NCBI GenBank assembly: GCA_043800535.1
Contig: JAZDMV010000008.1
Coordinates: 9,251-73,250, forward strand
Length of the DNA: 64,000 nt
Direction of reading: 5' to 3'
Source of the DNA: a bacterium
GTDB taxonomy: Bacteria; Patescibacteriota; Minisyncoccia; Portnoybacterales; GWB1-42-6
Part shown: positions 14,071 through 55,004 of the stretch, piece after piece
Layout of the letters: each line of letters opens with the position of its first letter
Position numbering within the stretch: position 1 is the stretch's first letter
Position numbers and translations under genes: made by a program
The notes under the pieces: generated by a model
Told to the model about the DNA's origin: nothing
Seen by the model: only the letters and a program-made list of their open reading frames with translations
The model's database searches: none

Positions 14071-15228
14071 ATGTTGATCGGCATTGATGCACACTGGCTG
14101 GAGGGGAATCGCACCGGCGTTGGCCGGTACCTTTTTAATTTACTCAAAGCTTGGTCCCGTTCCGAATCTGACATACTCTCCCGTGCTCCCGAGCACGGGA
14201 GAGTATGTCAGGTAAAGTTTGTATTGTATTTTAAGGACGAGATACCGAAAGATTTGCCGCAGTCGTCTTTGTTTAAGGTAATGCTTCTAAATGTGAAAAG
14301 CACGGCTAAATTCATCCATTGGGACTTGTGCCGGGCGGCTTGCAAGGATAAGGTGGATGTCCTGTTTTGTCCCGCATATATTGCGCCGCTATTTTATAGC
14401 GGTAAAATCGCGTTAACGCTCCATGACATAATCTATGAAACGCATCCGGAATGGTTTGAATGGAAAAGCTGGGCAGATAAGATTTTGCTCAAATGGGTTT
14501 CAAAGATCTCGGCGCGCAAGGCGGCTTTAATTTTTACCATTTCTGATTTTTCGCGGCAGGAAATTATCGAATATTTTAGGATCAAAGCAGAAAAAATAAA
14601 GGCAATCCCTTTGGCAGGAGACATCGGGGAGGTAGCGGAAGGGGGAAGCGATGAGATACTGAAAAATCAATTCGGCATCAAAGACCGGTTCGGATTTTAT
14701 GTCGGCTCGATTTTTAACCGGCGGCATTTGTCCGAAATAATTGACGCGTTTTCCAGAATTGCGCAGGAAAGATCAGATTTTCAGCTGTTGCTGGCTGGTA
14801 AAGACCATACAAAGCCCGCACAGGACATAAGAGGCAAGGCCGAAAAGGTAAATAAAAAATTGGAGCGGCATGCGATTTTAAGGGTTGATTTTGTGAACGA
14901 TCATGAGTTAAAATTATTGTATAACGCATGTGCGTTTTTTATTTACCTTTCCGATTACGAAGGGTTTGGATTGCCACCCTTGGAAGCGATGGCCTTGGGC
15001 GCGCCAACCATAACCAGCGATGCAACTTCGCTAAAAGAAGTGGCTGGTTCGGCCGCGCTGTTGGTGAAAGAAAATTCAGATACAGAAGAAATTTATCAGG
15101 CGATGAAGAAGATTATAGACGAGGAAGCATTGCGGTCGCGGCTGATAGAAAAAGGCAAGGAGCAAGCGGCGAAATTTTCCTGGAAAAAATGTGCGGAGGA
15201 GACATTATCAGAATTATTAAACGCGTGA
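14071..15228 (+). CDS. Glycosyltransferase family 4 carrying an in-frame palindromic-repeat insertion
   Basis: GT4 N-terminus MLIGIDAHWLEGNRTGVGRY and C-terminal EGFGLPPLEAMALGAP motif. The 42-nt palindrome at 14169-14210 is translated as DILSRAPEHGRVCQ. Confidence 0.8.
   Translation: MLIGIDAHWLEGNRTGVGRYLFNLLKAWSRSESDILSRAPEHGRVCQVKFVLYFKDEIPKDLPQSSLFKVMLLNVKSTAKFIHWDLCRAACKDKVDVLFCPAYIAPLFYSGKIALTLHDIIYETHPEWFEWKSWADKILLKWVSKISARKAALIFTISDFSRQEIIEYFRIKAEKIKAIPLAGDIGEVAEGGSDEILKNQFGIKDRFGFYVGSIFNRRHLSEIIDAFSRIAQERSDFQLLLAGKDHTKPAQDIRGKAEKVNKKLERHAILRVDFVNDHELKLLYNACAFFIYLSDYEGFGLPPLEAMALGAPTITSDATSLKEVAGSAALLVKENSDTEEIYQAMKKIIDEEALRSRLIEKGKEQAAKFSWKKCAEETLSELLNA
14169..14210. repeat. 42-nt perfect palindrome (CATACTCTCCCGTGCTCC family), copy 1, in-frame within the GT4 gene
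   Basis: TGACATACTCTCCCGTGCTC-CC-GAGCACGGGAGAGTATGTCA; 20+2+20 nt, 14 codons. Confidence 0.9.
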
Positions 15229-15267
15229 TAAGCTGGATATCCTAGTTTTCTCATTTCTTTATTTCCT

Positions 15268-15318
15268 AATTTCTAGGTGATGGAAATCAGGAAACTGAGA
15301 AATTAGGAAATTATCAGG
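15268..15318 (+). terminator. AT-rich 14-bp stem hairpin after the GT4 gene (terminator/attenuator-like)
   Basis: ATTTCCTAATTTCT...AGAAATTAGGAAAT perfect inverted repeat. Confidence 0.35.
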
Positions 15319-15331
15319 GTAAATTAAAATT

Positions 15332-16900
15332 TTGAAAAAATACTTTGTTCCGTTAAATATAATTTTTGCTGTTGAGGTGATAATAGTGATATTGGCTTCA
15401 CTCGGAATTATTCCCCGCGAGGCGGTTTTAGCGCTGACGGGCTTGATGATTTTTTACATGATCTTTTCGCCGGTGGAAGATTCTCTTTATCTTGTTGTTG
15501 CATCAATCCCGCTTTTTGTCGCTTTGCCGATAAGCGGTAATTTTGATTCAATGGCTAATTGGCGGATCTTGATTACCGTCTTGTTTTTATGCCTGTTTTT
15601 TAAGCGTGGGATTTTAAGTGTGCTGTTGAAAGACGAGAAAGGTCGTTGGCAGTTGAAAGAAAAGTATGGCTGCTATTTAGCTGAATACCTGATTTTGCCG
15701 TTTTTGGGCATAGCGGCATTGTCTATTTTTGTGGCTGACTACAAAATTTTAGGGGTGAAGAAATTGTTATTTCTAATTAATATTTTTCTGTTGTTTCTTA
15801 TTATACGAAACTTAGCGGGAAGAAAAGAGGTTTTTTTAAATATTCTGAAAGCGGCCGCCACGGGTGCTTCTGTTGTCGTTTTGGGAGGCGCGGTGCAGTT
15901 TATTGCTATTTTATTTTTGCCTTTGTACAATTTCTGGCAATTTTGGGCAAATAGCGTGATTGGCGTTTTTTATGGGCAAGGCCTTGCCAAACTTTTGTCT
16001 ATCAGTAATACCTGGTTTGCCTATTATGTGAACAGGCCACCGACATTAAGGATTTTTTCTTTGTTTCCCGATTCTCATTCTTCAGCGATGTTTTTAATTC
16101 TGGCGACGCCGGTATTTTTGGCTTTGGCCGTGTTTTTTGAAAAAGAGCGGGGCAAAAAAATATTTTTTTGGGTAATGGTTGGGTTGTCGCTGTTTTTTGT
16201 CATTATGTCCGGCTCGCGGGGCGCCTGGCTTAGTTTTATCCCGGTTTTTATAGTTGCTTTATATATTTTTATCAAAAAGACGGATCGGCAGTTAAACAGA
16301 AAGATCATTGTAACGGCGGCGATTTTTGGGATTCTTTTTTTTGCATCGTCTTTTTATCCATTCGTTTTTTATAAAGTGCAATCGTGGTTGGGCTACGGCA
16401 GTTCCTATGATGTCTCGTTTTTTGAGCGGGCAAAATCAATTTCTGACCTGGACGAAATTTCCAATAAAAGCCGGCTACAGATATGGCGGGCGAGTATAAG
16501 CTCTTTAGCGCAGCATCCGATGCTTGGTGTTGGCCTGGGCAATTATATAACAGTGCTGAATGAAGACGTTTCGGCAGTAAAAAAAGGCGCCTCGGCTCAT
16601 AATTTGTATCTTGATTTTGCGGCGGAAATAGGGATCTTAGGCGTTTTGATTCTTTTGGCGATTTTTGTTGAAATCCTGCGCACTTGCTGGCTGGTTTTTG
16701 GGCAGGCGGAGGAGCCATATTTTAAAATTTTTGGTCTGGCGTTCGGTCTTTACTTTTTGTGGGCGCTGGTTTATAGTTTATTTGATGTGGTGCTTTTAAA
16801 CGACAAAGTGTTTCTGTTTTTCATGGTTGCAACCGGCGCGCTTTATTCCATAAGAGCACTGACGGAAGATAAGCGAAAGAAAGCAGCAATAATTCAGTAG
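15332..16900 (+). CDS. O-antigen ligase/polymerase-like (Wzy_C domain) polytopic membrane protein
   Basis: 522 aa, more than 10 TM, with SGSRGAW motif and a periplasmic loop typical of the O-antigen ligase family. Confidence 0.7.
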   Translation: MKKYFVPLNIIFAVEVIIVILASLGIIPREAVLALTGLMIFYMIFSPVEDSLYLVVASIPLFVALPISGNFDSMANWRILITVLFLCLFFKRGILSVLLKDEKGRWQLKEKYGCYLAEYLILPFLGIAALSIFVADYKILGVKKLLFLINIFLLFLIIRNLAGRKEVFLNILKAAATGASVVVLGGAVQFIAILFLPLYNFWQFWANSVIGVFYGQGLAKLLSISNTWFAYYVNRPPTLRIFSLFPDSHSSAMFLILATPVFLALAVFFEKERGKKIFFWVMVGLSLFFVIMSGSRGAWLSFIPVFIVALYIFIKKTDRQLNRKIIVTAAIFGILFFASSFYPFVFYKVQSWLGYGSSYDVSFFERAKSISDLDEISNKSRLQIWRASISSLAQHPMLGVGLGNYITVLNEDVSAVKKGASAHNLYLDFAAEIGILGVLILLAIFVEILRTCWLVFGQAEEPYFKIFGLAFGLYFLWALVYSLFDVVLLNDKVFLFFMVATGALYSIRALTEDKRKKAAIIQ

Positions 16901-16912
16901 CAAAAAATTTTC

Positions 16913-17965
16913 ATGCTATCGGTTTCTGTCAATTTGGTTACATACAATGGCCGGCGATTTATTGAAAATTGTTTAAAGTCTGTTTTGCGGCAGACATACC
17001 CGAAAGTTGAGATTTTGATAATTGATAACGCGTCTCAAGATAATACAGTGTTGATGGCGCAGGAAATTATCGGCAAAGAAAATCCTAAATTTCCAGTGCG
17101 TATAATTAAAAATGAAAAAAATCTCGGTTTCTCAGCTGGCCATAATTTGGGGATAAAGGAAAGCAGGGGAGAATTGGTTGTCTGTTTGAATCAGGACGTG
17201 GTGCTGGTACCGGATTTTATTGAAAAAGCTGTTGAGTTTTTTGAAAAAAATGGCCAAACTGAAATTGCAGCGCTTCAGCCAAAGCTTTTACGGCTTGATA
17301 AGGAGTTGCAGCCGTCCAGCATTATTGATACGACAGGTTTGGTAATGTTAAAAAACCGGCGGATTATTAGTCGCGGTCAGGGGCAGAAAGACGAAGGGCA
17401 GTATGGTAATATAGAAGAAGTATTTGGCGCGGATGGAGCCGCGCCGGTCTATAAAAGAGACGCGTTGGAAGACGTGAAAATAAATGTCAAATGTCAAATG
17501 TCAAATGTCAAAACCGCGGATGGCGAATACTTTGATGAGGACTTCTTTGCTTATAAAGAAGACGTTGATTTATCGTGGCGTTTACGTCTAGCCGGTTGGA
17601 AAATTTTTTATGTTCCCAAAGTCATAGCCTGGCATGGTCGTAGCGCCGGAGACAGTACAGCCACTAATTATTTTGCCATTATCAGAGAAAGATTAAAAAT
17701 TAGTAAATTTGCCAAATACGTAGCTTTTAAAAACCAAAGATTGATGCAGATAAAAAATGAGCAGCTATTTCTTTTATTAAAACACTTACCGCGATTTTTG
17801 GTTAAAGAAATCAGTTCTTGGACATATGTAATTTTATTTGAGCGATTTACGTGGTCGGCAATTAGAGACCTATTTAGGCAGGCACCGCGCGCTTTTCAAA
17901 AACGTAAAATAATTATGGAGAGCAGAAGAGCCAGCGTAAACGAAATGGGAAAGTGGTTTATTTAA
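16913..17965 (+). CDS. Glycosyltransferase family 2 containing an internal heptanucleotide repeat
   Basis: IIDNASQDNT, LNQDVVL and YKEDVDLSWR motifs. (AAATGTC)x4 at 17482-17509 encodes INVKCQMSNVKT. Confidence 0.8.
   Translation: MLSVSVNLVTYNGRRFIENCLKSVLRQTYPKVEILIIDNASQDNTVLMAQEIIGKENPKFPVRIIKNEKNLGFSAGHNLGIKESRGELVVCLNQDVVLVPDFIEKAVEFFEKNGQTEIAALQPKLLRLDKELQPSSIIDTTGLVMLKNRRIISRGQGQKDEGQYGNIEEVFGADGAAPVYKRDALEDVKINVKCQMSNVKTADGEYFDEDFFAYKEDVDLSWRLRLAGWKIFYVPKVIAWHGRSAGDSTATNYFAIIRERLKISKFAKYVAFKNQRLMQIKNEQLFLLLKHLPRFLVKEISSWTYVILFERFTWSAIRDLFRQAPRAFQKRKIIMESRRASVNEMGKWFI
17482..17509 (+). repeat. Heptanucleotide tandem repeat (AAATGTC)x4 inside the GT2 CDS
   Basis: Four perfect 7-nt units followed by AAA; the unit length is not a multiple of 3. 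Confidence 0.9.
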
Positions 17966-17990
17966 AAAATTTCAGTTAGCGCAAAAAATA

Positions 17991-19040
17991 ATGGTAATAC
18001 AAAATGATCTTTCGGAATTAAATAAACCGGATGCGGAGCAAAAGCCTTACAGAAAGAGACGGTTTTGGCTGTGGACTTTAATTATTATTGCAGTTCTGGC
18101 AGGATTGTCCGGCGTAATGTTTTATAAGGCAGGATTCACTTTCTCGCAGATGAATGTCAATGCGGGCGGAAGCATCCTGCCAGTTTTGGAAGACGCGCCT
18201 AAAGCTGAGAAAGACGAGGACAGAATAAATATTCTCATGCTTGGTCTGCGCGGACCGGAAGACCCGAATGGTGGGTTGCTGACGGATACTATAATAGTTT
18301 TGAGCGTCAAAAAATCTACCGGTCAGGTGGCGATGATATCAGTTCCGCGCGACCTTTATGTTAAAATGCCGACGGTCAATGGTCAGAATAAGTCGCCAGC
18401 CATTAAAGAGAAAATCAATTTTGCCTATGCATTGGGCGAAGAAACAAAGCAGGGGGCGGGCCTGGCATTCAGTAAGGCGGTAATATCAAACGTGACAGGC
18501 CTATATATTGACCACGTTGCTTCTGTTGATTTTATGGCTTTTAAAGATGTTGTTGATATTCTGGGAGGAATTGATGTTTATCTTGATAAGCCATTCCGCG
18601 AAACTGCTCAGTTTGCCAAAGAAATTCTGCTTGAGCTACCTGAAGGCAAAAATCATCTAGACGGCGACACAGCATTGTATTTTGTGCGCTCACGTTATTC
18701 AACGAGCGATTTTGACAGGGCGCGCCGCCAGCAGCAGGCTCTTGTGGCAATGAAAGACAAAGCGCTTTCGGCCGGGATTTTGCTTAATCCCTTAAAAGTT
18801 TTTGAGTTGTTGAGCGCTATGGGCAAGCATGTACGCACCGATATGGGAGTGGGAGATATAAATAATTTGTTAAGCTTGGCGGGCAATTTTAATTCCAAAA
18901 ATATTACGCATAAGATTTTTGATACAACCGAGGAGGGCTTGCTTTACGCCACAACGAGCGATAGCGGCGCCTACATTCTGCTGCCGGTCGGGGACAATTT
19001 TGAGAAGATGCGAGAGGCGAGCAAGAATATATTTCAGTAA
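17991..19040 (+). CDS. LytR-CpsA-Psr (LCP) family cell-envelope polymer transferase
   Basis: N-terminal TM; LGLRGPED...DTIIVLSV...ISVPRDLYV and ALYFVRSRYS...RARRQQ motifs. Confidence 0.8.
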   Translation: MVIQNDLSELNKPDAEQKPYRKRRFWLWTLIIIAVLAGLSGVMFYKAGFTFSQMNVNAGGSILPVLEDAPKAEKDEDRINILMLGLRGPEDPNGGLLTDTIIVLSVKKSTGQVAMISVPRDLYVKMPTVNGQNKSPAIKEKINFAYALGEETKQGAGLAFSKAVISNVTGLYIDHVASVDFMAFKDVVDILGGIDVYLDKPFRETAQFAKEILLELPEGKNHLDGDTALYFVRSRYSTSDFDRARRQQQALVAMKDKALSAGILLNPLKVFELLSAMGKHVRTDMGVGDINNLLSLAGNFNSKNITHKIFDTTEEGLLYATTSDSGAYILLPVGDNFEKMREASKNIFQ

Positions 19041-19108
19041 ATTTTCAATTATCAATTTACAATTCTCAATAAATGTCCCACAAAGCGGGACAAGTTTGAA
19101 AATTAGTT

Positions 19109-19924: not shown

Positions 19925-19977
19925 TTTTCGAATTTCCTGCCGGAATTAAGAAATTAAGACATTGGTGGATTAATAAA

Positions 19978-21452: not shown

Positions 21453-21461
21453 CGCAGTAGC

Positions 21462-21556: not shown

Positions 21557-21568
21557 CAAAAATGAGCT

Positions 21569-22033: not shown

Positions 22034-22117
22034 TTGCATCAGGAATCATGAATCAAGAGCCGTGAATTTTAAGATATAATTCTTAATTTACGATTCTTAA
22101 TTCATGATTCAAGTTTT

Positions 22118-23746: not shown

Positions 23747-23748
23747 AG

Positions 23749-23778: not shown

Positions 23779-23796
23779 GATATGTGGCAGAGCGGA

Positions 23797-24158: not shown

Positions 24159-24593
24159 ATGTCAACGTCAGAAAAAGCAATTAAAATAGGGGAGTGGGCA
24201 AAGAAAAATCAGGGCGATATAGCGCTTGTGGCGGGATTTGTTTTAGTTGCCCTGATAAGCTTTGGGCTCGGTTATCTTAGCGCCCCCGGTGTTTCAAAAA
24301 GCGAACTTAAAATACAGGATTTGCAGTCCGACATCAGCCAGACGGCGGTGGACGCGGTAGTGGGGGACGGTGCGGCGGTTAACATGGGCAATTCGCAGCC
24401 GAGCACGGAAAAAGGCACTATTGTTGCGTCAAAATACGGCACAAAATATCACTGGCCCTGGTGTAGTTTTGCAAAAAATATAAAACCGGAAAATGAAGTT
24501 TGGTTCAAGACCGAGGCCGAAGCGAAGGCAGCAGGGTATTCGGCCTGTGGCTGTATCAAAAGCAAAGCGCCGGCAGGATACACGGCGCAATGA
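24159..24593 (+). CDS. Membrane-anchored protein with C-terminal Ada-type zinc-binding motif
   Basis: N-terminal TM. C-terminus YHWPWCSFAKNIKPENEVWFKTEAEAKAAGYSACGC matches the Ada N-terminal metal-binding pattern (C...ikpeN.v.F...EA..AGy.pC..C). Confidence 0.55.
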   Translation: MSTSEKAIKIGEWAKKNQGDIALVAGFVLVALISFGLGYLSAPGVSKSELKIQDLQSDISQTAVDAVVGDGAAVNMGNSQPSTEKGTIVASKYGTKYHWPWCSFAKNIKPENEVWFKTEAEAKAAGYSACGCIKSKAPAGYTAQ

Positions 24594-24613
24594 AATCCTT
24601 AGAAGCTTACTAG

Positions 24614-24651
24614 ACATACACTCCCGTGCTCCCGAGCACGGGAGTGTATGT
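24614..24651. repeat. 38-nt perfect palindrome, copy 2 of the CATAC(T/A)CTCCCGTGCTCC family
   Basis: ACATACACTCCCGTGCTCCCGAGCACGGGAGTGTATGT, 21 nt after the stop of the upstream gene. Confidence 0.9.
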
Positions 24652-24689
24652 GCGATTGGTGTTTTGATGGGAAATAGGGAAAAAATCGT

Positions 24690-24791
24690 GCATGTAATTC
24701 TTTCATACTTGCAAGCAGGAAAGAATTACAGGAAGTATGCATAATGTAAGAATTTTAAAGACCCTGCGGTTTGGCAGGGTCTTTTTTGCGT
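24690..24791 (+). ncRNA. Candidate small RNA: 11-bp perfect hairpin followed by an intrinsic terminator
   Basis: GTAATTCTTTC-14 nt-GAAAGAATTAC, then GACCCTGC-ggtttg-GCAGGGTC TTTTTTG. No convincing ORF. Confidence 0.25.
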
Positions 24792-24870
24792 ATTGCGGGA
24801 ATGGCGGAGAAAAAAGAAAAATGGCTGACGAAATAAGCTTGTCAGCCATTGGATTTGGGTGCGTTAGTAT

Positions 24871-25161
24871 TCAGGTTTGCGCGGAAAATTTTCGCTCGAG
24901 TCGCTCAGTCAGACAATAAGACAATACTGCGATTGCAGAACAAAGGAGCCCAAGGATGTATATGGTTACGTAGAATTGGGTAGAAAAGCATACATTCCAA
25001 ATTTGCTTGAGGATCGTGGTTCTGTCAAATAGAAATATTGCAGAACCCGCTCCGATGAGCCAGCAGGCCGCAAGCCCAAAAAAGAACATAGACAGACGCG
25101 CAAGCGCCAGGGGCCAATATACTGATATGCGATAATGCGGATAAGTTCGAACACTTGCCAT
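24871..25161 (-). CDS. Small membrane protein (96 aa, 3 TM)
   Basis: RBS ACGGAGGTG 4 nt upstream of ATG; hydrophobic. Confidence 0.45.
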   Translation of the reverse strand: MASVRTYPHYRISVYWPLALARLSMFFFGLAACWLIGAGSAIFLFDRTTILKQIWNVCFSTQFYVTIYILGLLCSAIAVLSYCLTERLERKFSAQT

Positions 25162-25329
25162 AGCGCACCTCCGTGAGTTTATTTTTGAAGAACTTGGAGG
25201 GGAACCGTTTTGGTTCCCCTCGGGCAGAAAAGGGGCGGGAAGGAGTCGAACGATCCGCCACGTAAACTTAAGTGGTTATGCCAGATCACCCCTGCCTTAG
25301 AGTCACTTTATTAGAAGCGAAGCCAAAAG

Positions 25330-26490
25330 TCAATTTTTTGACCTTTTATTTTTTGTCGGCGTCAAGGCCTTGAACTCTTTGTGTATTTTTTTTGCCTTTT
25401 CTGCTTTTTGCCGCAGATCAGGCGGCAGTTCTTTTATCACTTTTTTCAATTTTATCTCATCAAGCTTCAGAACATCGTTCAAGCGCCCGAGCGGCTCAAG
25501 GATGTCTTTTATCATCTGCCAGTCATATTTGAAGCGTTGGATCGTCTGGCGAGTGATGTAACCGTCATCGCCGAACAGCCGTTCCAGGCCTTCCTGGTCC
25601 ATGAATTTTGAAAAATCTGATTTTATCTGGCCTATTTTTTTGTCGCGTTCATCAATTTCGTCTTTAAGCTGGAAATATTCGCCAATTAGCGCTTTGACGT
25701 CCTGGTCGTTGAAAATTATTTTTTCTTCTTTGAATTTATGTTTGAAAAGGGGACACCATCGCTGATAGGCGCACCAGTCGCAAAGAGGATTCGGCACGGG
25801 CGGGAATTTTTCTTCAGAATGTGCTTTTTTGATCTTTTCCAGCATTCCGATAGCTCCTTCTTGTGTCTGTGTCAAATCATTAGCCGAGCGCAGGGAAGAA
25901 AGTTTCTCGCCGTGCTTCAAATAATATAAGCTGACTTTTACCGGCCGATCTTCTTCTTTTATTTTCGGCCAGCGGTTGGCGAGGCCCAGGTGATATAGAG
26001 AAAGCTGCAGATCCGTGTCCACGTTTTTTTGCGCGGGCATTTTTTTTGTCGTTTTATAATCAATTACCTCAAACGCATCATTTTCTATTTTATCAATGCG
26101 GTCAATTTTGCCCGTGATAAAATGGGTTTCTTGGCCTATGGACATAGGCACCTCAAAAGGCGTCTCTAGTGCCAATATATCAAATTGTTGTCCGGAATTT
26201 TTTGCAAAATAATTTTTTAAGATCTGGACGCCTTGCGCAAAAGCCGCGGCTTCCTGCCGCGGATCTGGAAATATATCTGGCTGCCAGTTCTGGCTCCAAA
26301 AACTGAGCAGGTCCTCTTCAGTAGGGGAGAAAGGCCGGCCGGGGTCGTGAAAATGCTTGAGGGCAGAATGAATTAAGGTTCCAAAAATCGCGTCGCCGGA
26401 TTTTGGGACTTTTATTTTATCAATATATTGAAATTTATATTTTGCCGGACACAATTTAAAAGTGTCCAAAGCGGAGTAGGAGAGGCGCAT
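25330..26490 (-). CDS. PD-(D/E)XK nuclease (RecB/Cas4-like) with C-terminal Cys cluster
   Basis: MRLSYSALDTFKLCPAKYKFQYI start typical of the PDDEXK_1 family, EVIDYKT catalytic motif and C-terminal CDWCAYQRWC. The ORF extends to 26568 but the family-consistent ATG is at 26490. Confidence 0.75.
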   Translation of the reverse strand: MRLSYSALDTFKLCPAKYKFQYIDKIKVPKSGDAIFGTLIHSALKHFHDPGRPFSPTEEDLLSFWSQNWQPDIFPDPRQEAAAFAQGVQILKNYFAKNSGQQFDILALETPFEVPMSIGQETHFITGKIDRIDKIENDAFEVIDYKTTKKMPAQKNVDTDLQLSLYHLGLANRWPKIKEEDRPVKVSLYYLKHGEKLSSLRSANDLTQTQEGAIGMLEKIKKAHSEEKFPPVPNPLCDWCAYQRWCPLFKHKFKEEKIIFNDQDVKALIGEYFQLKDEIDERDKKIGQIKSDFSKFMDQEGLERLFGDDGYITRQTIQRFKYDWQMIKDILEPLGRLNDVLKLDEIKLKKVIKELPPDLRQKAEKAKKIHKEFKALTPTKNKRSKN

Positions 26491-32423: not shown

Positions 32424-32506
32424 TGGAAGATTTAAGAATTTAGATTTTAGATTTAAGAATTTTGTCCGTTGTTCTTAAATCATGAATCTTAAATCTTAAT
32501 TCTAGA

Positions 32507-35472: not shown

Positions 35473-35510
35473 CAAAGCGCCCTGCACTTTTACAAAAGTG
35501 CAGGGCGCTT
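35473..35510. other. 17-bp perfect stem-loop upstream of murD
   Basis: AAGCGCCCTGCACTTTT-aca-AAAGTGCAGGGCGCTT. Confidence 0.6.
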
Positions 35511-36950: not shown

Positions 36951-36993
36951 AACTCACCCCACCCCTCTCTTTAAAAAAGAGAGGGAGTTTTTT
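36951..36993. repeat. AACTCACCCCACCCCTCTCTT...AAGAGAGGGAG hairpin repeat, copy 1 (terminator-like)
   Basis: Near-identical to 57711-57747; lies after the mraY stop. Confidence 0.7.
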
Positions 36994-46484: not shown

Positions 46485-46555
46485 TTCACGAATGTGGACC
46501 TAGGCAGAATCGAACTGCCATCTCCTCATTGCAAATGAGGTGTTCTACCACTAAA
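46485..46555 (-). tRNA. tRNA-Ala (anticodon UGC)
   Basis: Folded by hand: acceptor GGGCCUA/UAGGUCC with G3:U70, D-arm GUUU-AGUGGUA-GAAC, anticodon loop UUUGCAA, T-arm GGCAG-UUCGAUU-CUGCC, discriminator A; CCA not encoded. Confidence 0.85.
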
Positions 46556-46690
46556 CTATAGGCCCGTATAAATTTAACGGGGCAGGCTGAGCTATGGGTC
46601 CACCCAAATTATCAATCTCATTGTCTCGTTTCGCGAGATGTCCCGTAGGGAAACAAATGTGGTGCTCTACCGACTGAGCTATCGGCCCTT
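46556..46690 (-). pseudogene. tRNA-like 5' fragments (acceptor + D-arm only), no complete cloverleaf
   Basis: GGGCCGATAGCTCAGTCGGTAGAGCACC (perfect acceptor/D-arm) and GGACCCATAGCTCAGCCTG lack matching anticodon, T-arm and 3' acceptor. Confidence 0.3.
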
Positions 46691-46875
46691 AATTTGTTCA
46701 TAATCTAACACAAATACGCATTTTTTTCAAATTAAGTGTTGCGGGGATTGTTTTATTGGGGTATAATAAAAAGAATGTTTTTAAAAAATTATTTACTCCC
46801 TTCTTTGAAAAAGGAGGGGTGGGGTGGATTTAAATCTCCCTTACCCCCTCTTTACGAAAGAGGGGAATTTTTCAG

Positions 46876-48015
46876 ATGAAAAAAAATTACGCAAAGCTAG
46901 GGATTGAGGTGCATAAAAAGATGCACGGAAAAATTTCCGTTGTTTCCAAAAAGCCGGTAAAGACGATGGACGACTTAAGCATTCTTTATACGCCCGGCGT
47001 TGGCGCGGCTTCTTCATATCTTGCGGCACACAAAAACGAAATTCGCGCAATGACGATAAAAAACAATACGGTTGCCGTTGTTTCTGACGGTTCGGCGGTT
47101 CTGGGGCTGGGAAATCTTGGGCCGGAGGGCGCAATTCCCGTTATGGAAGGCAAATGCGTTCTATTCAAGGAGTTTGGCGGGGTTGACGCGTTCCCAATTG
47201 TTTTAGATACACAGAACCCCGACGAAATTGTGGAAACAGTCAAAAACATTGCGCCGATCTTTGGCGGAATTAACCTGGAAGATATTTCGGCGCCGCGATG
47301 TTTTGAAATTGAAGAACGGCTTGAAAAGCTTTTGGATATTCCTCTGATGCACGACGACCAACATGGCACGGCAATAGTGGTGCTGGCTGGGTTGATAAAC
47401 GCTTTAAAGGTTACCGGCAAAAAAGTGTCGCAAAGCAAATTTGTGATTGTCGGCGCGGGCGCGGCCGGAAATGCGACAGCTAAACTTTTGCACGGGATCG
47501 GCGCCGAAGACATTATTGTTTGTGACAGTAAAGGAATAATCGACCGGCGCAGAAAGGATCTAGACCCGTATAAAAAAGCACTGGCAAAAATTACGAATAA
47601 AGATAATGTGTATGGCGGCGTGGCAGTGGCGGCTGAAGGCGCGGACGCGATAATCGGCGTTTCAAAACCGGGTTCTATAACGGCCGAGCACATAAAGTTA
47701 ATGGCAAAAAAACCGATTGTTTTCGCCCTGGCCAATCCGATTCCTGAAATTATGCCGGATGTTGCAAAAAAGGCGGGTGCTTTTATCATTGCCACAGGCC
47801 GTTCCGATTTTCCTAATCAAATCAACAATGTTTTGGGGTTTCCTGGAATTTTCCGCGGGGCGCTTGACCACAATGTCAAAAAAATAACGCCTGGAATAAA
47901 ATTAAAAGCGGCAAAAGCATTAGCCGCCTTGGTAAAGAAACCGAGCCGGACAAATATTGTGCCAAACGTCTTTGACAAACGCGTAGCAAAAGCAGTCGCT
48001 AACGCGGTAAGGTAA
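46876..48015 (+). CDS. NAD(P)-dependent malic enzyme (short form, MaeB-like)
   Basis: LSILYTPGVG..., GAGAAG Rossmann motif and malic enzyme domains; 379 aa. Confidence 0.9.
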   Translation: MKKNYAKLGIEVHKKMHGKISVVSKKPVKTMDDLSILYTPGVGAASSYLAAHKNEIRAMTIKNNTVAVVSDGSAVLGLGNLGPEGAIPVMEGKCVLFKEFGGVDAFPIVLDTQNPDEIVETVKNIAPIFGGINLEDISAPRCFEIEERLEKLLDIPLMHDDQHGTAIVVLAGLINALKVTGKKVSQSKFVIVGAGAAGNATAKLLHGIGAEDIIVCDSKGIIDRRRKDLDPYKKALAKITNKDNVYGGVAVAAEGADAIIGVSKPGSITAEHIKLMAKKPIVFALANPIPEIMPDVAKKAGAFIIATGRSDFPNQINNVLGFPGIFRGALDHNVKKITPGIKLKAAKALAALVKKPSRTNIVPNVFDKRVAKAVANAVR

Positions 48016-48044
48016 CGGGCTGTAGGCGATCGTGAAATGCTATA

Positions 48045-48086
48045 GTGCATACACTCCCGTGCTCCCGAGCACGGGAGTGTATGCAC
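48045..48086. repeat. 42-nt perfect palindrome, copy 3
   Basis: GTGCATACACTCCCGTGCTC-CC-GAGCACGGGAGTGTATGCAC, 30 nt after the malic enzyme stop. Confidence 0.9.
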
Positions 48087-48098
48087 GAATAGAAACAT

Positions 48099-48125
48099 AA
48101 AGACCCCGCACAATGCGGGGTCTTT
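48099..48125. terminator. Hairpin terminator between malic enzyme and tRNA-Ile
   Basis: AAAGACCCCGCA-caa-TGCGGGGTCTTT. Confidence 0.5.
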
Positions 48126-48158
48126 ATGGCTTCGCCATTCCGAAGCCTTGGCGAAGGA

Positions 48159-48235
48159 TGGTGGGCGACCCAGGAATCGAACCTGGCACCTCGTCATTAT
48201 CAGTGACGCGCTCTAACCAACTGAGCTAGTCGCCC
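48159..48235 (-). tRNA. tRNA-Ile (anticodon GAU), CCA encoded
   Basis: GGGCGAC-UA-GCUC-AGUUGGUU-AGAGC-G-CGUCA-CUGAUAA-UGACG-AGGUG-CCAGG-UUCGAUU-CCUGG-GUCGCCC-A-CCA. Confidence 0.9.
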
Positions 48236-48286
48236 ATAATTGTGCATTTTAACATTAAAAAATGCTTCTGTCAAAGCAGCTTTTGG

Positions 48287-49436: not shown

Positions 49437-49805
49437 CTAATTGCCGTGGCCGTTCGACAAAAGCCACTGCCAGACAATACGGATATAGAAGGATTTTGGT
49501 CTTTCTTGAAACGGAATAAGGCGTTCAATCTCATCGTGGCATGGTCGGCAAACTTCAAAGGTCAGCTTATTGATATTGCCATTGCCGAAAAATCTTTTTG
49601 GAAAAATGTGATGGGTGGTGCGCGATTCCGAACGGCGGCATTTTATGCATCGTTTTTTCTTTTTTGACGCGGCGGCCTCCTTTTCAATTGCTTGTAGCGT
49701 AAAAATGTCGTCCTTGGTTAATATTTGATTTGGTTCAAGGCTGGCTGATGACCGCAGATTAGTGACCTGAGTTGCCAATTCGTTGCAGGCGATGCTCGTT
49801 TGCAT
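49437..49805 (-). CDS. HNH endonuclease
   Basis: CIKCRRSE...HHIFPKRFFGNGNINKL...CRPCHDEIE HNH/zinc-ribbon motif. Confidence 0.75.
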   Translation of the reverse strand: MQTSIACNELATQVTNLRSSASLEPNQILTKDDIFTLQAIEKEAAASKKKKRCIKCRRSESRTTHHIFPKRFFGNGNINKLTFEVCRPCHDEIERLIPFQERPKSFYIRIVWQWLLSNGHGN

Positions 49806-49936
49806 TTAGCGGCTCCTCTCTGGACCTCATAATTTTTTAAAGTTCTATCCTCCTTTCTTTTCCTGCGTGCGTATAATACGCTCTAATTATATTTTAACAA
49901 TTTTTTATCCCAAGGCAAACTGAGTTATTAACAGGA

Positions 49937-49980
49937 ATCGAAAAAAATGCGCATTATCGCGCTATAGCGCCATAATGCGC
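49937..49980 (-). terminator. Terminator after the P-type ATPase gene
   Basis: 32-nt near-palindrome GCGCATTATCGCGCTATAGCGCCATAATGCGC followed by ATTTTTTTCG on the minus strand. Confidence 0.65.
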
Positions 49981-50013
49981 AGAATAATCAGAAAAATGCG
50001 TACGTGCCTTTAT

Positions 50014-51867
50014 CTATTTTTTCAGATGCAGGCGGAAAAGTTTCATTGAATTTAAAAGAGGGATAAAGTCGGTGATGAAGTTATAGGCAGCGGCGCGGGC
50101 AGGCGGGAAAAACCCAAAAAACACCAGGACAAGACCTAAAACATTAACCAATCCCCATATCCAAAAATTTTGTCGCGCGACAGAAACGGAATATTTTGAA
50201 AGCTTTATTATTTCCGGCACTTTTGTCAGGTCGTCTTTCATGAGCGCGATATCCGCCGTTTCAATAGCGACGTCCGAGCCAATTGCGCCCATAGCAATAC
50301 CGATGTCAGCCAAAGCCAAAACCGCCGCGTCATTTACGCCGTCGCCTATCATGGCGACTTTGTATTTTTTGTTGAGGTAGGTTTTTAGATACCGGATCTT
50401 ATCTTCAGGGAGAAGATTGGCGTGGAATTCGCTGATGCCTGCCTGGCTGGCTACCCGGCGGGCAATTTTTTCATTATCGCCTGTCAGCATGACTATTTTT
50501 TCAATGCCGGTTGCTTTTAGTTCTGTGATCGCTTGTTTTGTTTGCGGCCGCAGTTCGTCAGCCAGAGCGGTAAAACAGATCATTTTGCCGTCTGCGGCGA
50601 AAAGAGTAATGTTGAAGCCACGGTTTTTGGCTTCGGTTATTTGGGCCATCTGGGCGTCAGTTATCTGAACATTCTGTTCTTGGAAAAATTGTAATTTGCC
50701 CGAAAGGATTTTTTTATTATGCCAAAGAGCTTGGGCGCCCTTGCCCGAATGTTCATGAAAATCCTGGGGCTCGCTTGGCACAATGTGATTTTCTTTGACA
50801 TATTCAATTACCGCCTTGGCCGACGGATGGCTGGAGAGCACGCAAACCGCACCGGCCAGTTGCAGCGCCTCGTCAGGGTCGACGCCGTTGAACGTGAAAA
50901 ATTCTTCAACTTTGAGCCGGCCGCGGGTCAGGGTTCCGGTCTTGTCAACCACGACAACTTTTAATTTGGATAATCCTTCAAGAATGTTATTTCCTTTTAT
51001 GATTATGCCCCGTTTTGCCGCGTATCCTATGGCTGCTAAAAATGCCAGGGGAATAGCCACGGCTATGTCGTCGGCGCAGGTCACAAGCAAAACAGAAAGC
51101 ACTAGGTCAAGATTAGCTGAAAAAAAATACAGAATTATGGCGCCGGCAATGGTTATAAAAATATACCAGCGCGTAAATCTTTCAGAAATGCCGTGGATGG
51201 CGGCTTTGTTTTGCTGGGATTTTTCCACCAGCTCAATAATGCGTTCAAGCGTTGTTTCGGGACCGATTTTTTCGGCGCGCACGACGATATTGCCATCAGT
51301 TACAATGGTTGAGCTGAGAACTATTTCACCGACAGATTTTGATACAGGCAGGGATTCGCCGGTCAAAGATGACTGGTCAACGCTGGCTTCGCCCTTGATT
51401 ATTGTGCCGTCAACTGGGATGCGTTCGCCAAGCTCCACCACGACCGAATCCCCTTTCTTGATCTGTTCAAGCGGGATTTCCTTAAGCTCTCCGTTTTCGT
51501 TAATTTTGGCGGTTTTTGGTTTAAGTTTAAGAAGCGAGGCGATGGCGCGCCGGGCGCGGGAGTCGGTGTAACGGGCAAAGAGCCGGGCTGATGCCAACAT
51601 CATGTTTATGAAAACGGCGGATGTCCATTCTTGTGCCAATAACGAAACTATTAAAGCGATGCTAGCCAGAAGATCAATCGAAATCGATTTTGCCTTCAGC
51701 GCGCGGAGAGCGCTTAGAATAACAGGCAGTGTGCCCAAACCAGCCAGGATGACCATAAGCGCGCTATCCACGTCAAGTGGCACAAGGCCCGAATAATGAA
51801 GCGCAAGCGATACCGCCAAGAGACACACAAGGACGGTATCTCTGTATATAAAAAATTTTTTCTTCAT
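50014..51867 (-). CDS. P-type ATPase (P1B-like heavy-metal transporter lacking N-terminal metal-binding domain)
   Basis: DKTGTLT phosphorylation motif, GDGVNDA hinge, TGES-like actuator. No HMA domain; TM6 has TCADD instead of the canonical CPC. Confidence 0.85.
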   Translation of the reverse strand: MKKKFFIYRDTVLVCLLAVSLALHYSGLVPLDVDSALMVILAGLGTLPVILSALRALKAKSISIDLLASIALIVSLLAQEWTSAVFINMMLASARLFARYTDSRARRAIASLLKLKPKTAKINENGELKEIPLEQIKKGDSVVVELGERIPVDGTIIKGEASVDQSSLTGESLPVSKSVGEIVLSSTIVTDGNIVVRAEKIGPETTLERIIELVEKSQQNKAAIHGISERFTRWYIFITIAGAIILYFFSANLDLVLSVLLVTCADDIAVAIPLAFLAAIGYAAKRGIIIKGNNILEGLSKLKVVVVDKTGTLTRGRLKVEEFFTFNGVDPDEALQLAGAVCVLSSHPSAKAVIEYVKENHIVPSEPQDFHEHSGKGAQALWHNKKILSGKLQFFQEQNVQITDAQMAQITEAKNRGFNITLFAADGKMICFTALADELRPQTKQAITELKATGIEKIVMLTGDNEKIARRVASQAGISEFHANLLPEDKIRYLKTYLNKKYKVAMIGDGVNDAAVLALADIGIAMGAIGSDVAIETADIALMKDDLTKVPEIIKLSKYSVSVARQNFWIWGLVNVLGLVLVFFGFFPPARAAAYNFITDFIPLLNSMKLFRLHLKK

Positions 51868-51985
51868 TTTTAATTTGTTTTACTTGGGCTATAATATGCT
51901 TGCAGTAAAGCACATTATATTGTATTATTATAATTCTGATTATATCATAAAAAGAGTAACAAATCAGCCAAAAGAACGTATAAAT

Positions 51986-52525
51986 ATGTCAGATAAGTTT
52001 AACAAATTAGCGCGAGAATTAAAAAACGGAGATCGCCGGGCCGGCGAACAGATCTTTGGCAGTTTCAGCGCTCCGATATTCCGATTCTTTCTGGTGAAGA
52101 CTTCAAGCCGCGAGACGGCTGAGGACCTGACCCAGGAAGTTTTTTTGAAATTAATTGATAAAATAGACACATTTGACGAGAATTTAGGTAGCTTTTCGGG
52201 ATGGTTTTGGCAGATAGCAAAGAATACTGTCAAGGATTATTACCGCAAAAAGAAATCGTTTCCCCTTTCGGATATGGCGTTGCAGGCGAAAGAAAAAAAT
52301 GATTATGCAGAGCAGAAGAATGACTTGAGGAATGAAATAAAAATGACGGAAATTCTGGAATTAATAAAGGAGCTTAATGAGGACGAACAGGAAGTATTTT
52401 CGCTGCACTATCTTTCTGACTTGGCTTATCGGGATATAAGCCGGGCGCTGGGAAGATCGGAAAGTTCGCTTAGGGTTCTGGTCCACAGGATAAATAAAAA
52501 AATAAGAAAACTTTTAGAGCAATGA
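51986..52525 (+). CDS. ECF-type RNA polymerase sigma factor
   Basis: Region 2 (DLTQEVFLKL...FSGWFWQIAKN) and region 4 (YRDISRALGRSESSLRVLVHRINKKIRK). ATG at 51986. Confidence 0.85.
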   Translation: MSDKFNKLARELKNGDRRAGEQIFGSFSAPIFRFFLVKTSSRETAEDLTQEVFLKLIDKIDTFDENLGSFSGWFWQIAKNTVKDYYRKKKSFPLSDMALQAKEKNDYAEQKNDLRNEIKMTEILELIKELNEDEQEVFSLHYLSDLAYRDISRALGRSESSLRVLVHRINKKIRKLLEQ

Positions 52526-53283
52526 TAGGATTTTTTAAAAAAAAGGCAATAGAATGGCGCCTGCGCGCAAAACTGCGTAAACAGTTTAGCCCGCGGCCCG
52601 AATTTCTGGCTTATTGCCGGGCTATTTTTCTCGAAAAAGCGGCGCAGAGGAATCCGGCCGGGCAGACCAAGCTGGCAGGCGGTTTTTATTTTGCCAGTTT
52701 TGCTAGATACAGTTTAGTTTCGTTTTTTGTTCTGTTGTTTTTGGGCAGCGGCGCGGCTGTCTATGCAGACGCGACAAACGTCAGCTACGGCCATCCGCTT
52801 TACAATTTTAAACTGGCAGTTGAGACAGTGCGCGTCAAAGTGGCGCCAGGCGGAAAAGCCGCAGTTTTGCGCACCGAATTTGCCGAGCGCCGCGTACAGG
52901 AAATAAAAATAGTCACAACGCAGAAACCAATGGCCGAGGCCGCTGAAAGCACAAAAGCTGAAAATGTAAAGGATGGCGTGCAAACAAAGGCAGGAGCAAA
53001 AGAACAGGAACACCAGCAAAAGATGGCTGATCTGCGCAGTCACTTAAAGAAGCAGGTTGATCTGGTCGTTGAGGAAATAGAAGAAAAGAAAGCAAAAAGC
53101 GCCAGCGCGGCAGAATTATGCGATTCTATGTCGCGGGTGATGAAGGAAGATGAAGAAATTGACAGAGAAGAGACAAAGGAGGAGCACGAACAGAGCTGGG
53201 CTCGCTTCAAAAAAAATTGCAGCGAATTTATGAATGACAAAGATAGCGGCAAGGTTAAAAACCGCGAAAGCAGCAATGACTGA
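52522..53283 (+). CDS. Putative anti-sigma factor (single TM, E/K-rich extracytoplasmic domain)
   Basis: Translationally coupled to the sigma gene (ATGA overlap). One TM at residues about 55-78. Confidence 0.5.
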   Translation: MIGFFKKKAIEWRLRAKLRKQFSPRPEFLAYCRAIFLEKAAQRNPAGQTKLAGGFYFASFARYSLVSFFVLLFLGSGAAVYADATNVSYGHPLYNFKLAVETVRVKVAPGGKAAVLRTEFAERRVQEIKIVTTQKPMAEAAESTKAENVKDGVQTKAGAKEQEHQQKMADLRSHLKKQVDLVVEEIEEKKAKSASAAELCDSMSRVMKEDEEIDREETKEEHEQSWARFKKNCSEFMNDKDSGKVKNRESSND

Positions 53284-53473
53284 ACAATAACGAGCTGGGC
53301 GTCAACAAGGCCTCTTTTCGCGGGGCTTTTTTATTTGCTTTAAGATAACAGAAGAATAATTTTTGTAACAAAGGCAATTTTTGAGCGTATTGATAAACAG
53401 ACAAGCAGAGGTTTTTATTTTATTTAATTTTTGTAAAGGTCGAACTTTAAACAATTAAGACAAATTCCAGCTT

Positions 53474-54055
53474 ATGAAAAAATTAGCAGCTAGATTAGCC
53501 ATGTTTCTGGGAGTTTTTACGCTTGCCTTGAGCCCGGTGCTGGCTGTCGCCACATACGCGGCGACAACGCATGCCTGGCTTGTTTCGGGCACCGCCACAG
53601 AAATTACAAGCACCAGCTTAAAGCTGACGCGCGGCAACAAGGTCTATACTGTGAATGTTTCCTCTTCTGCGACCGTGGTTGATAATGACTGGCAGGATAT
53701 CTCTTTAAACGAAATCCACACGGGTGACCGAGTTTTTGTTTTTGGCAAGGTTAATGATGTGACGATTGAGGCGATTTACGTCAAAGACAGGTCTGTGCCG
53801 GTTAAAATAGATGTCAGGGAAATGTCAGGAACGGCATCAAGCGTCTCTTCCGCTTCGTTTAGCTTAAAACGGGGAAGCAAGACGTCAACCATCAATATCG
53901 GCTCGCACACCATGCTGTTTGACAAGAACTGGGGAAATATAAGCTTGAGCGATATAAAAGACGGGCATCGGGTGACGGTTTACGGCCGGACCACTGATAA
54001 CGGCGCGACAGTTAACGCGGTATATGTAAAGGACAAAGATCTGCCTGCGTCTTAA
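53474..54055 (+). CDS. Secreted protein with two ~60-aa tandem beta-rich repeats
   Basis: Signal peptide; repeats LKLTRGNKVYTVNV...VTIEAIYVKD and FSLKRGSKTSTINI...ATVNAVYVKD. Downstream of the sigma/anti-sigma pair. Confidence 0.6.
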   Translation: MKKLAARLAMFLGVFTLALSPVLAVATYAATTHAWLVSGTATEITSTSLKLTRGNKVYTVNVSSSATVVDNDWQDISLNEIHTGDRVFVFGKVNDVTIEAIYVKDRSVPVKIDVREMSGTASSVSSASFSLKRGSKTSTINIGSHTMLFDKNWGNISLSDIKDGHRVTVYGRTTDNGATVNAVYVKDKDLPAS

Positions 54056-54101
54056 AAGGCGCAATAAAACAGTTCTTTTTCTTGCAAGACTAAAATAATT
54101 G

Positions 54102-54140
54102 ATAAGCAAAAATCCCCCGCACGGTGCGGGGGATTTTTGC
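54102..54140. terminator. Bidirectional terminator
   Basis: AAAAATCCCCCGCA-cggt-GCGGGGGATTTTTGC. Confidence 0.8.
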
Positions 54141-54160
54141 TTTAAACTAGTTAAATGTTT

Positions 54161-54943
54161 TTAACTTTTTCTGTTAAATGCAAGCACCGCCGCAGATATC
54201 ATGACAACAGAAAACCCGATAAGAAAAAGCAGGTTTACCATTAGCGGAAAAACGACAAGGCTGCTTAATACCTTTTGGGAAACGACATTATCCAAAATAA
54301 CGCGGCGCATGGCATCCACGCCGTAAGTCAAAGGATTTATGCGGGAAATCACTGTCATCCAGGTCGGCACGTTTGTCAGCGGGAAAAACGCGCCTGAAAG
54401 AAAGAACATGGGAAAAACCAGCACCTGCATGACCAAACCGAAAGTTTCGGTCGTTTTCATAAGCGAAGCGATAAGCAGACCAATGCCGGCGATGGCAAAG
54501 GAAAGGATTATCATCAGACCGAACAACTGGATGATCGTGAAAATATGCAGCTGCACGCCGATAAAAGGCGCGATGATAAGCAGGATCAGGCCCTGGAGCG
54601 AAGCGATGGTGGCGGCGCCCAGCGCCTTGCCGATGGAAATGGAAGTGCGCGGAATAGGCGCCACTAAAATTTCTTTTAAGAAACCAAACTCTCTGTCCCA
54701 GACGGTTGAAACGGTTGAAAAAAAGGCAATACCCATGACATTCATGGCGATTATGCCCGGGTACATGAATTTTATAAAATCAACGCCAAAATTGCCCTGC
54801 GTTAGGGTTTGGCTCAGGCCCGCGCCGAAAATGAACAGAAACATTATTGGCTGGAAAAACGAAGAAACGATCCTTGTTTTATCGCGCCAATATCTGATTA
54901 TTTCGCGCCGCCAGATTGTAATGATGGGCTGGATCAGGTTCAT
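54161..54943 (-). CDS. ABC-2 type transporter permease
   Basis: 260 aa, 6 TM, ABC-2 family pattern. Downstream of the ATPase gene. Confidence 0.8.
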   Translation of the reverse strand: MNLIQPIITIWRREIIRYWRDKTRIVSSFFQPIMFLFIFGAGLSQTLTQGNFGVDFIKFMYPGIIAMNVMGIAFFSTVSTVWDREFGFLKEILVAPIPRTSISIGKALGAATIASLQGLILLIIAPFIGVQLHIFTIIQLFGLMIILSFAIAGIGLLIASLMKTTETFGLVMQVLVFPMFFLSGAFFPLTNVPTWMTVISRINPLTYGVDAMRRVILDNVVSQKVLSSLVVFPLMVNLLFLIGFSVVMISAAVLAFNRKS

Positions 54944-54962
54944 ATTATTGCAAAATGTAATT

Positions 54963-55004
54963 TGACATACTCTCCCGCGCTCCCGAGCGCGGGAGAGTAT
55001 GTCA
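54963..55004. repeat. 42-nt perfect palindrome, copy 4
   Basis: TGACATACTCTCCCGCGCTC-CC-GAGCGCGGGAGAGTATGTCA between the ABC ATPase and permease genes. T/A to C/G compensatory pair relative to copy 1. Confidence 0.9.

Follow-up and report, generated by a model that had tools for sequence, protein, structure and literature searches.

The 64,000-nucleotide (nt) stretch of contig JAZDMV010000008.1 analysed here (the window) is ordinary chromosome according to the Pfam matches of its approximately 60 open reading frames (ORFs), which code for PriA, a formyltransferase, Mur ligases, MurG, FtsW, MraY, GluRS, CTP synthase, L9 and YchF, as well as for pilin-like proteins, a sigma factor, a P-type ATPase and an ABC-2 exporter. 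The proteins encoded in the window, which belongs to a 79,802-nt contig of a metagenome-assembled genome and whose products include MFH0852167.1 and MFH0852204.1, have their closest homologs in Patescibacteria, mainly Candidatus Portnoybacteria. Dispersed among these housekeeping operons are four copies of a short palindrome (W1 to W4, Table 1), 7-23 kb apart and at a density of roughly one per 16 kb. They lie where an earlier reading of the sequence (the original prediction) had placed them, its first interval, 14169-14210, being the 42-nt core of W1, and our results confirm the observation as real and not random. Four exact matches to the 24-nt core CTCCCGYGCTCCCGAGCRCGGGAG are present on the + strand of the window and none in 100 dinucleotide shuffles, and the window contains 21 perfect hairpins with stems of 10 bp or more compared with 1.15 in shuffled sequence, W1-W4 being four of the five longest. 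Most of the other hairpins of this size are bidirectional terminators composed of an A tract, a stem and a T tract.

The family unit is a 36-42-nt GC-rich palindrome, (TGA)CATAC(A/T)CTCCCG(Y)GCTC-NN-GAGC(R)CGGGAG(T/A)GTATG(TCA). All window copies are perfect palindromes, as had been proposed, but their arms measure 21, 18, 20 and 20 nt and not uniformly 20. Each of the 79 stem pairs of W1-W4 is Watson-Crick, with zero wobble intermediates, and where the copies differ the two arms differ together. The paired differences named at the outset (T-A versus A-T at position 6 of the arm, CATACN, and T-A versus C-G at position 12) were found again, and the outermost 3 bp add more of them, since they differ among copies (TGA/TCA versus GTG/CAC) yet remain complementary. 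Past the common core, palindromy continues for a length and with bases that differ site by site. As folded single strands, the units have free energies between -20 and -26 kcal/mol for DNA and between -33 and -41 kcal/mol for RNA; the z-scores range from -7 to -13. The four window copies lack the regular spacing of a CRISPR or other tandem array.

W2 begins 20 nt past the stop codon of an ORF at 24159-24593 (+), and W3 begins 29 nt past the stop of the malic enzyme gene (46876-48015, +), which converges on the gene for tRNA-Ile (48159-48235, -). W4 fills part of the 74-nt spacer between an ABC ATPase gene (55018-55992, -) and an ABC-2 permease gene (54161-54943, -), lying, as read on the - strand, 13 nt past the stop codon of the ATPase gene and 19 nt ahead of the ATG of the permease gene. 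For these three copies a location after stop codons or between genes had been correctly described; what had been missed is that W1 is coding and not intergenic, being in frame about 100 nt from the start codon of a GT4 (GT-B) glycosyltransferase gene. When the copies of a sister lineage described below are included, seven of eight independent loci are extragenic, 0-54 nt past a stop codon, and one is intragenic; one copy, L010b, donates the TAA stop of its upstream ORF. An assignment of the copies to leading or lagging strand by GC skew was rejected, as the skew is confounded with gene orientation.

A terminator-like role, which had also been suggested, is weak in view of these settings. The tails after the hairpins (GGTAAAG, GATTGGT, GAATAGA) contain no proper T tract and only W4 passes a permissive terminator scan (5 T in 8), so the window copies do not have the stem-loop and following U tract of an intrinsic terminator; in addition, W4 is within an operon and W1 within a coding sequence. 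The palindromes resemble Rho-independent terminators in being GC-rich stem-loops past a stop codon, but they are without A or T tracts, whereas the true terminators of this genome have both. Textbook bidirectional terminators (A tract, 14-19-bp GC stem, T tract) at 967-998, 35475-35510, 48096-48128, 54104-54142 and 56094-56126 show that the host Patescibacterium uses canonical Rho-independent termination, and since the third of them immediately follows W3, W3 is not needed for termination.

Table 1. Palindrome copies, adjoining tags and related features. Positions of W1-W4, their tags, the terminator and the GT4 gene are those of the window; the remaining positions are those of the locus named.
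Feature	Position	Strand	Description
Copy W1	14168..14211	.	perfect 21+2+21 palindrome, CTGACATACTCTCCCGTGCTC CC GAGCACGGGAGAGTATGTCAG
Copy W2	24614..24651	.	perfect 18+2+18 palindrome; 42-nt register 24612-24653
Copy W3	48045..48086	.	perfect 20+2+20 palindrome; extra outer CUAU/AUAG stem, 48040-48043 with 48089-48092
Copy W4	54963..55004	.	perfect 20+2+20 palindrome; imperfect 31-nt arms (84%-complementary extension) over 54952-55015
AATC tag abutting W1	14165..14168	+	GATT read outward on - strand; unpaired
GATT tag, 3' side of W2	24654..24657	+	tail GATTGGTGTTTTGA like the tail of L010a
AATT by W4	54959..54962	.	one mismatch from the tag; 11-nt tail AATTACATTTT on - strand
Canonical bidirectional intrinsic terminator	48096..48128	.	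CATAAAGACCCCGCA caa TGCGGGGTCTTTATG, directly after W3; not a family member
GT4 (GT-B) glycosyltransferase gene, host of W1	14071..15228	+	intact, full-length, 385 aa; Pfam match from residue 16
GT4-site palindrome, L018	3095-3140		perfect 16-bp stem
GT4-site palindrome, L013	5960-6030		perfect 10-bp stem plus outer stem
GT4-site palindrome, L004	10085-10160		15/18 paired, 2-nt centre
GT4-site palindrome, L011	10100-10150		imperfect, GC-rich
GT4-site palindrome, L012	4170-4230		imperfect, GC-rich
GT4-site palindrome, L019	10100-10160		imperfect, GC-rich
GT4-site palindrome, L009			decayed copy of W family, 16/20 pairs Watson-Crick

A scan of Joint Genome Institute (JGI) metagenomes, with a pattern that constrained one arm, the centre and 4 nt of the opposite arm and left 16 nt of the right arm free, returned six contigs. 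Five of these, all from one sample (Ga0315277), carry six copies, each of them palindromic although 16 nt of the right arm were free to vary. The sixth contig (L008), in which one arm matches and the complementary arm is missing, was discarded as a chance or non-family match. The ten copies, four from the window and six from a sister lineage at about 84% nt identity, represent eight independent loci. Two of the sister contigs match the window at 83-85% identity, L009 along 1.6 kb and L007 along 2.7 kb, and carry the palindrome at the W1 and W4 sites, respectively, showing that both insertions are older than the divergence of the two lineages. Among more remote relatives (73-80% identity), three have an empty W4 site, with a spacer of 15 nt in L014 as well as in L015 and of 36 nt in L017; the corresponding spacer of L016 measures 176 nt and is filled by a different hairpin repeat, of the CCCCTC/GAGGGG type. 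At the W3 site, L014 has an extra small gene and a normal terminator, with no palindrome.

A covariance model built from the ten copies and searched over 220 kb of the window plus relatives recovered those copies alone, all at 54 bits or more, and nothing weaker down to E = 10; the approximately 150 kb from more remote relatives contained no copy, and the window contained no decayed relic. This result limits the family to this lineage and its sister and leaves the window without relics. In the relatives, palindromes of the CATAC...GTATG form outside the family were confined to a short form encoded by 'HTxEY' loop variants. The 24-nt core does not occur in 185,579 species-representative genomes save for three unrelated GC-rich palindromes, from Oscillospiraceae, Gemmataceae and Nocardiopsis, which were rejected as members for having no CATAC arms and looking like common GC-rich terminators or palindromes. 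No family member was present in viral contigs, plasmids or phages. In Rfam, only two tRNAs of the window pass a gathering threshold, other matches around W3 stay below it, and no palindrome reaches one. Identity to a named repeat family, which would have spoken against the original prediction, was therefore not found in any of these collections.

The claim that substitutions are compensated between the arms is borne out by statistics on the ten copies. In their alignment, standard pairs make up 95.5% of the cells; of the 20 stem pairs, 13 do not vary, six are altered on both sides and none is altered on one side only, while G.U pairs account for 1 in 200 cells; the covariation score was reached by 0 of 500 shuffles, and sliding the partner columns destroys the signal. 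The further claim, of selection on structure rather than on primary sequence, is overstated: the hairpin is maintained, but so is the sequence. W4 and L007 differ at 3 of 42 positions, two of which are one compensated pair, and W1 and L009 differ at 7 of 42, whereas between the window and the orthologous contigs the flanking genes differ at 21-34% of their third codon positions. Because orthologous copies differ less than synonymous sites, the sequence has been conserved or homogenised as well as the structure. Imperfect copies without compensating changes, which would also have spoken against the prediction, exist to some extent: L009, the coding ortholog of W1, has four non-Watson-Crick pairs and its RNA hairpin is down to -25.6 kcal/mol, and L007, the ortholog of W4, has one (T.G/C.A, a G.U wobble on the sense strand). 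On balance, the interpretation that accompanied the original prediction is partly supported.

The distribution of variants among the copies is informative in this respect. At stem position 9, W1 and W4 both have T-A, and their orthologs have G.T and A-T, which argues for conversion or turnover of copies and not for independent compensation in each of them. The same left-C/right-A hybrid of two position-16 variants is found in both L007 and L009, and the one-sided states of L009 at positions 8 and 9 correspond to intermediates of the double changes seen in L010b and in W1/W4. These patterns point to homogenisation from arm to arm and from copy to copy, which may act alongside or in place of independent selection on each copy.

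Directly next to the hairpin the copies carry an unpaired tetranucleotide, AATC/GATT. When the flanks were scored reading outward from both ends of the 42-nt unit (16 flanks, eight independent loci), exact GATT adjoined one end in four loci and a one-mismatch variant in the other four, including the GAAT flank of W3. Four exact GATT in 16 flanks correspond to P of about 9e-7, or 2e-4 after correction for 256 tetramers, and the probability that all eight loci fall within one mismatch of GATT is about 3e-8. The similarity continues beyond the tag, in that the 11-nt tail of W4 is common to L007 and L010a and the tail GATT(C/G)G..TTTTGA is common to W2 and L010a. With respect to the sense strand, the tag is on the 3' side of the hairpin in six of seven scorable loci, a bias of only weak significance. 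Neither GTAG/CTAC nor CGTC/GACG is ever adjacent to the copies in the flanks examined. The centre of W1-W4 is CC on the + strand in all four cases; a meaning of this for loop orientation was considered and rejected, since the sister-lineage centres are CC, GG and AG and orientation does not follow the tag. The substrates of Y1 HUH transposases have this architecture too, a hairpin that adjoins an unpaired tetranucleotide.

Among known repeats, the palindromes come closest to repetitive extragenic palindromes (REPs). REPs are palindromes of 20-40 bp with an unpaired tetranucleotide tag at one end, found mostly downstream of ORFs between unidirectional or convergent genes; they form lineage-specific families, sometimes supply stop codons, are sometimes intragenic, and different REPs may occupy one gene site in related species (PMC3733652). 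The elements described here are likewise short, dispersed, GC-rich palindromic units (36-44 nt; four plus six copies), mainly extragenic and close to ORF 3' ends, with an unpaired tetranucleotide on one side, one case of stop donation and an occasional intragenic copy. They differ from the GTAG and CGTC superfamilies of REPs in their tag, and from REPs in general in being perfect (18-21-bp arms, 2-nt centre) and not imperfect palindromes. No gene for a REP-associated tyrosine transposase (RAYT), which in REP/RAYT systems is typically flanked by REPs, was found in the DNA examined, and the host is a Patescibacterium. Untagged REP-like families have also been described (PMC3733652); those of Mycobacterium, Deinococcus, Bordetella, Brucella and cyanobacteria are dispersed small palindromes without a GTAG/CGTC tag or known transposase as well, but they have other sequences and hosts, and the present family has a conserved tetranucleotide on one flank. 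No description of such repeats in Patescibacteria was found in the literature searched.

Other classes of elements show partial similarities. The subterminal hairpins of IS200/IS605 insertion sequences, which Y1 HUH enzymes recognise and cleave together with an adjacent tetranucleotide on single-stranded DNA, provide a mechanistic analogy, but the ends of these insertion sequences are imperfect hairpins in left/right pairs, and no transposase gene is located between or near the copies described here. Rickettsia palindromic elements (RPEs), typically about 100-150 bp long, include repeats in frame in intact genes at tolerated surface positions, with other copies intergenic, whereas only one of the eight independent loci is intragenic in our family. 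No sequence similarity to RPEs was seen, the core matching species genomes only in the three unrelated cases mentioned above, a comparison that did not include direct alignment with the RPE consensus, and the host is a Patescibacterium and not one of the Rickettsiales; the short RPE-4/6 are CGTC REPs (PMC3733652). [quoted passage not shown] However, they are 70-300 bp long, with terminal inverted repeats of 15-30 bp around a non-palindromic core and with target-site duplications, while the present unit is palindrome throughout except for its 2-nt centre and no direct repeats were found at its flanks.

Taken together, the palindromes are probably a lineage-specific, non-autonomous REP-like family of hairpin repeats in a Portnoybacteria-like chromosome. 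The family is new and outside the named superfamilies, but the kind of element is well known. This interpretation is supported by the dispersal of the family, with four copies in 64 kb and six on five contigs of one metagenome, and by its presence/absence pattern, L014, L015 and L017 having an empty W4 site and L014 also a W3 site without the palindrome. The covariation, the low divergence of orthologous copies compared with synonymous sites, the tag, the placement past stop codons and the location of W1 in a low-pLDDT loop also speak for it. Copies would have spread through the genome and persisted only where they are harmless, in short spacers past stops between co-oriented or convergent genes and, once, in frame in a surface loop of GT4. 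The hairpin with its tetranucleotide tag, exposed as single-stranded DNA, could be the substrate of a trans-acting HUH/Y1 enzyme, RAYT-like or IS200/IS605-like, encoded elsewhere. The symmetry of the arms would be upheld by a homogenising force, be it a need for the hairpin itself (in mobilisation or as a structure at mRNA 3' ends), templated correction from arm to arm or copy to copy, or both, and the apparent compensatory substitutions would result from this force.

Several observations weigh against a REP-like origin. No transposase, Y1_Tnp or RAYT domain was detected by Pfam in the approximately 60 ORFs of the window, which covers roughly 10% of the genome, or in the ORFs beside the metagenome copies. 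There is no clean junction between empty and filled sites and no target-site duplication, as outside the genes the filled W4 spacer cannot be aligned with its empty counterparts. The tag differs from both GTAG and CGTC, and it was noticed post hoc in eight independent loci only. All copies are singletons, without the doublets of REPINs or bacterial interspersed mosaic elements (BIMEs), in which two inverted REPs are separated by a short, constant distance, the closest pair (L010a/L010b) being 600 nt apart around a gene. Finally, both copies with known orthologs are old and give no evidence of recent mobility.

One alternative reading is that the arms are kept symmetrical by mutation and not by selection, with template switching at quasi-palindromes or mismatch correction within the hairpin copying one arm onto the other and gene conversion between copies homogenising the family. 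We consider this possible, though not likely. It would account for the lack of wobble intermediates among the 79 window pairs, for double transversions (A-T to T-A, C-G to A-T) with one-sided intermediates at the same positions in L009, and for the parallel double changes of W1 and W4 compared with their orthologs, which are best explained by conversion. The position-16 hybrid shared by L007 and L009 is what conversion tracts of half a palindrome predict, and the site-specific length and bases of palindromy beyond the core are also compatible with it. However, the sample consists of ten copies only, from which templated correction and selection are inseparable by sequence alone, the hybrid arms could have arisen as chimeras when mixed strains were assembled, and the mechanism leaves both the dispersal of the family and the decay of L009 unexplained.

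Another alternative, in our view equally possible though not likely, is that the palindromes serve the host as RNA hairpins, in protection from 3' exonucleases, in RNase III-type processing between cistrons or in termination, so that selection on RNA structure explains the compensation. Every intergenic copy is a few to 54 nt past a stop, between co-oriented or convergent genes, the hairpins are very stable as RNA, and the tag is 3' on the sense strand in six of seven scorable loci; other spacers in this genome and its relatives bear hairpins of unrelated sequence, and the sole mismatch of L007 is a wobble on the sense strand. On the other hand, the T tract is missing while canonical terminators are available, one of them right after W3, the relatives make do with a 15-nt spacer at the W4 site, and W1 is within a coding sequence close to the start codon. 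The nearly strict Watson-Crick pairing fits maintenance at the DNA level or by templating better, and sequence is conserved besides structure. A role as RNA hairpin and a selfish origin are not mutually exclusive.

The intragenic copy deserves separate consideration. W1 encodes about residues 33-47 (DILSRAPEHGRVCQ) of the GT4 protein. In an AlphaFold2 model built with 39 homologs (mean pLDDT 89.8), residues 31-50 form a loop from helix 16-30 to strand 49-54 with pLDDT of 67-74, so W1 is predicted to sit in a disordered, variable surface loop. The stretch that separates the conserved W and F-x-L-Y-F-K motifs is 6-38 residues long in 120 GT4 homologs, with modes of 10 and 13, and nested variants such as SRLNFQFPISNFQ versus SKLNFQFP-RQRRGSPGAA-ISNFQ and LANSEWLIANS versus LANSEWP-ASLSNRGE-LIANS are present. 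Seven diverged orthologs, from at least seven lineages besides that of the window, carry palindromes at the W1 site (Table 1), of unrelated sequence apart from the decayed W-family copy of L009, and some of these may be nested within older ones at the same codon position. In L004, L011, L012 and L013 the site belongs to the top 1.5-7.6% of the 80-nt windows of its own locus for palindromy, and none of the palindromes of these other lineages has a second copy in the 7-21 kb available per locus. A comparable situation has been reported for recB, where different REPs occupy one site in two Xanthomonas species (PMC3733652).

Hairpin elements may accumulate in the loop simply because insertions are tolerated at this point, or the site may itself generate or attract palindromes. 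An extension of the latter idea would combine a new class of AATC-tagged hairpins, perfected by arm-to-arm templated correction and not by selection, with a GT4 loop that acts as a nursery of palindromes seeding dispersed families. Hairpins would then be born or captured at the loop through fold-back or template-switch synthesis or through insertion targeted to hairpins. We regard this combination as doubtful.

Two other features of the GT4 gene were noted. The conserved peptide NLLQEWSKF just upstream of the loop is coded by a 13-16-bp palindrome (TAAATTTACTCCA ggaa TGGAGTAAATTTA) in L011 (10065-10094) and L012 (4133-4164), and the differences between these two preserve pairing. The 13-aa form of the loop (SSKFKVQSSKF) looks like a translated heptamer repeat of the kind found in AT-rich spacer arrays. 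Such inverted arrays, with tandem units of ~7 nt (AGATTTA, GAATCAT) facing their reverse complement, are located at 22043-22110 and 32428-32503 of the window and at 15993-16064 and 16892-16955 of L004, in spacers of co-oriented genes (rplI-pyrG, murG-ftsW).

Of the remaining explanations, operators of a dimeric DNA-binding regulator are very unlikely. Perfect dyad symmetry with a conserved primary sequence is what such sites would have, and a candidate regulator is the TrpR-like protein of L010, whose gene of the Trp-repressor family (PF01371, E 3e-16) is preceded by one copy, about 25 nt upstream of the start codon, and overlaps a second one at its stop codon. However, a continuous 42-bp palindrome far exceeds known operators in length, the copies are past stops, in a coding sequence and between convergent genes and not at promoters, the sites are missing in relatives with the same genes, and no such regulator gene is encoded within the window. 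Chance occurrence or an assembly artefact was ruled out, because, although palindromes can arise from amplification or assembly errors in general, nothing specific suggests it here, shuffles yield zero core matches, the copies are internal to a 79.8-kb contig, and the same elements are found at orthologous sites in an independent JGI assembly.

A REP-like family in this host is of some interest, since Patescibacteria have tiny streamlined genomes that are thought to be poor in selfish DNA; hairpin repeats persist even there and can enter proteins. The copies also provide a small, clean data set on compensatory evolution in DNA palindromes, in which selection can be set against templated correction: orthologous copies have diverged less than synonymous sites, although their two arms change together. 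The GT4 loop, recurrently occupied by unrelated palindromes, is an example of hairpin DNA creating variation in protein length. Nothing here is unprecedented for REPs or RPEs, and the general interest is moderate.

Examination of the surroundings of the copies revealed some additional features. On L010, the gene of the Trp-repressor family (1974-2615) is bracketed by two copies, of which the downstream one encodes its last two codons as well as the TAA. The ~680 nt 3' of W2 (24652-25330) contain no ORF with a Pfam match but two short perfect hairpins (24757-24784 and 25197-25221), and may correspond to a small gene or a non-coding RNA. Near W3, the genes for tRNA-Ala(TGC) (46494-46565) and tRNA-Ile(GAT) stand alone, with the malic enzyme gene on the opposite strand between them, a layout that is kept in the relative L014 (16936-17010 and 19784-19861); the usual place of this tRNA pair is the spacer of rRNA operons. 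Next to the ABC operon that contains W4, the sister lineage is without ~830 nt of the window (53235-54067, corresponding to 1542-1549 of L007), including an ORF at 53474-54055 with a weak DUF5666 match; as the more distant L014 and L015 have the gene, this difference is a lineage-specific deletion. The second type of hairpin repeat, rich in CCCCTC/GAGGGG and with GGGGAGATTT tails, is found in several genera: in the window it is located at 46797-46866 and also at 36963-36985 and 57723-57745, three units make up 9830-9990 of L016, in the spacer between the ABC ATPase and permease genes, and one unit is inside a GT2 gene of L013 (5291-5359).

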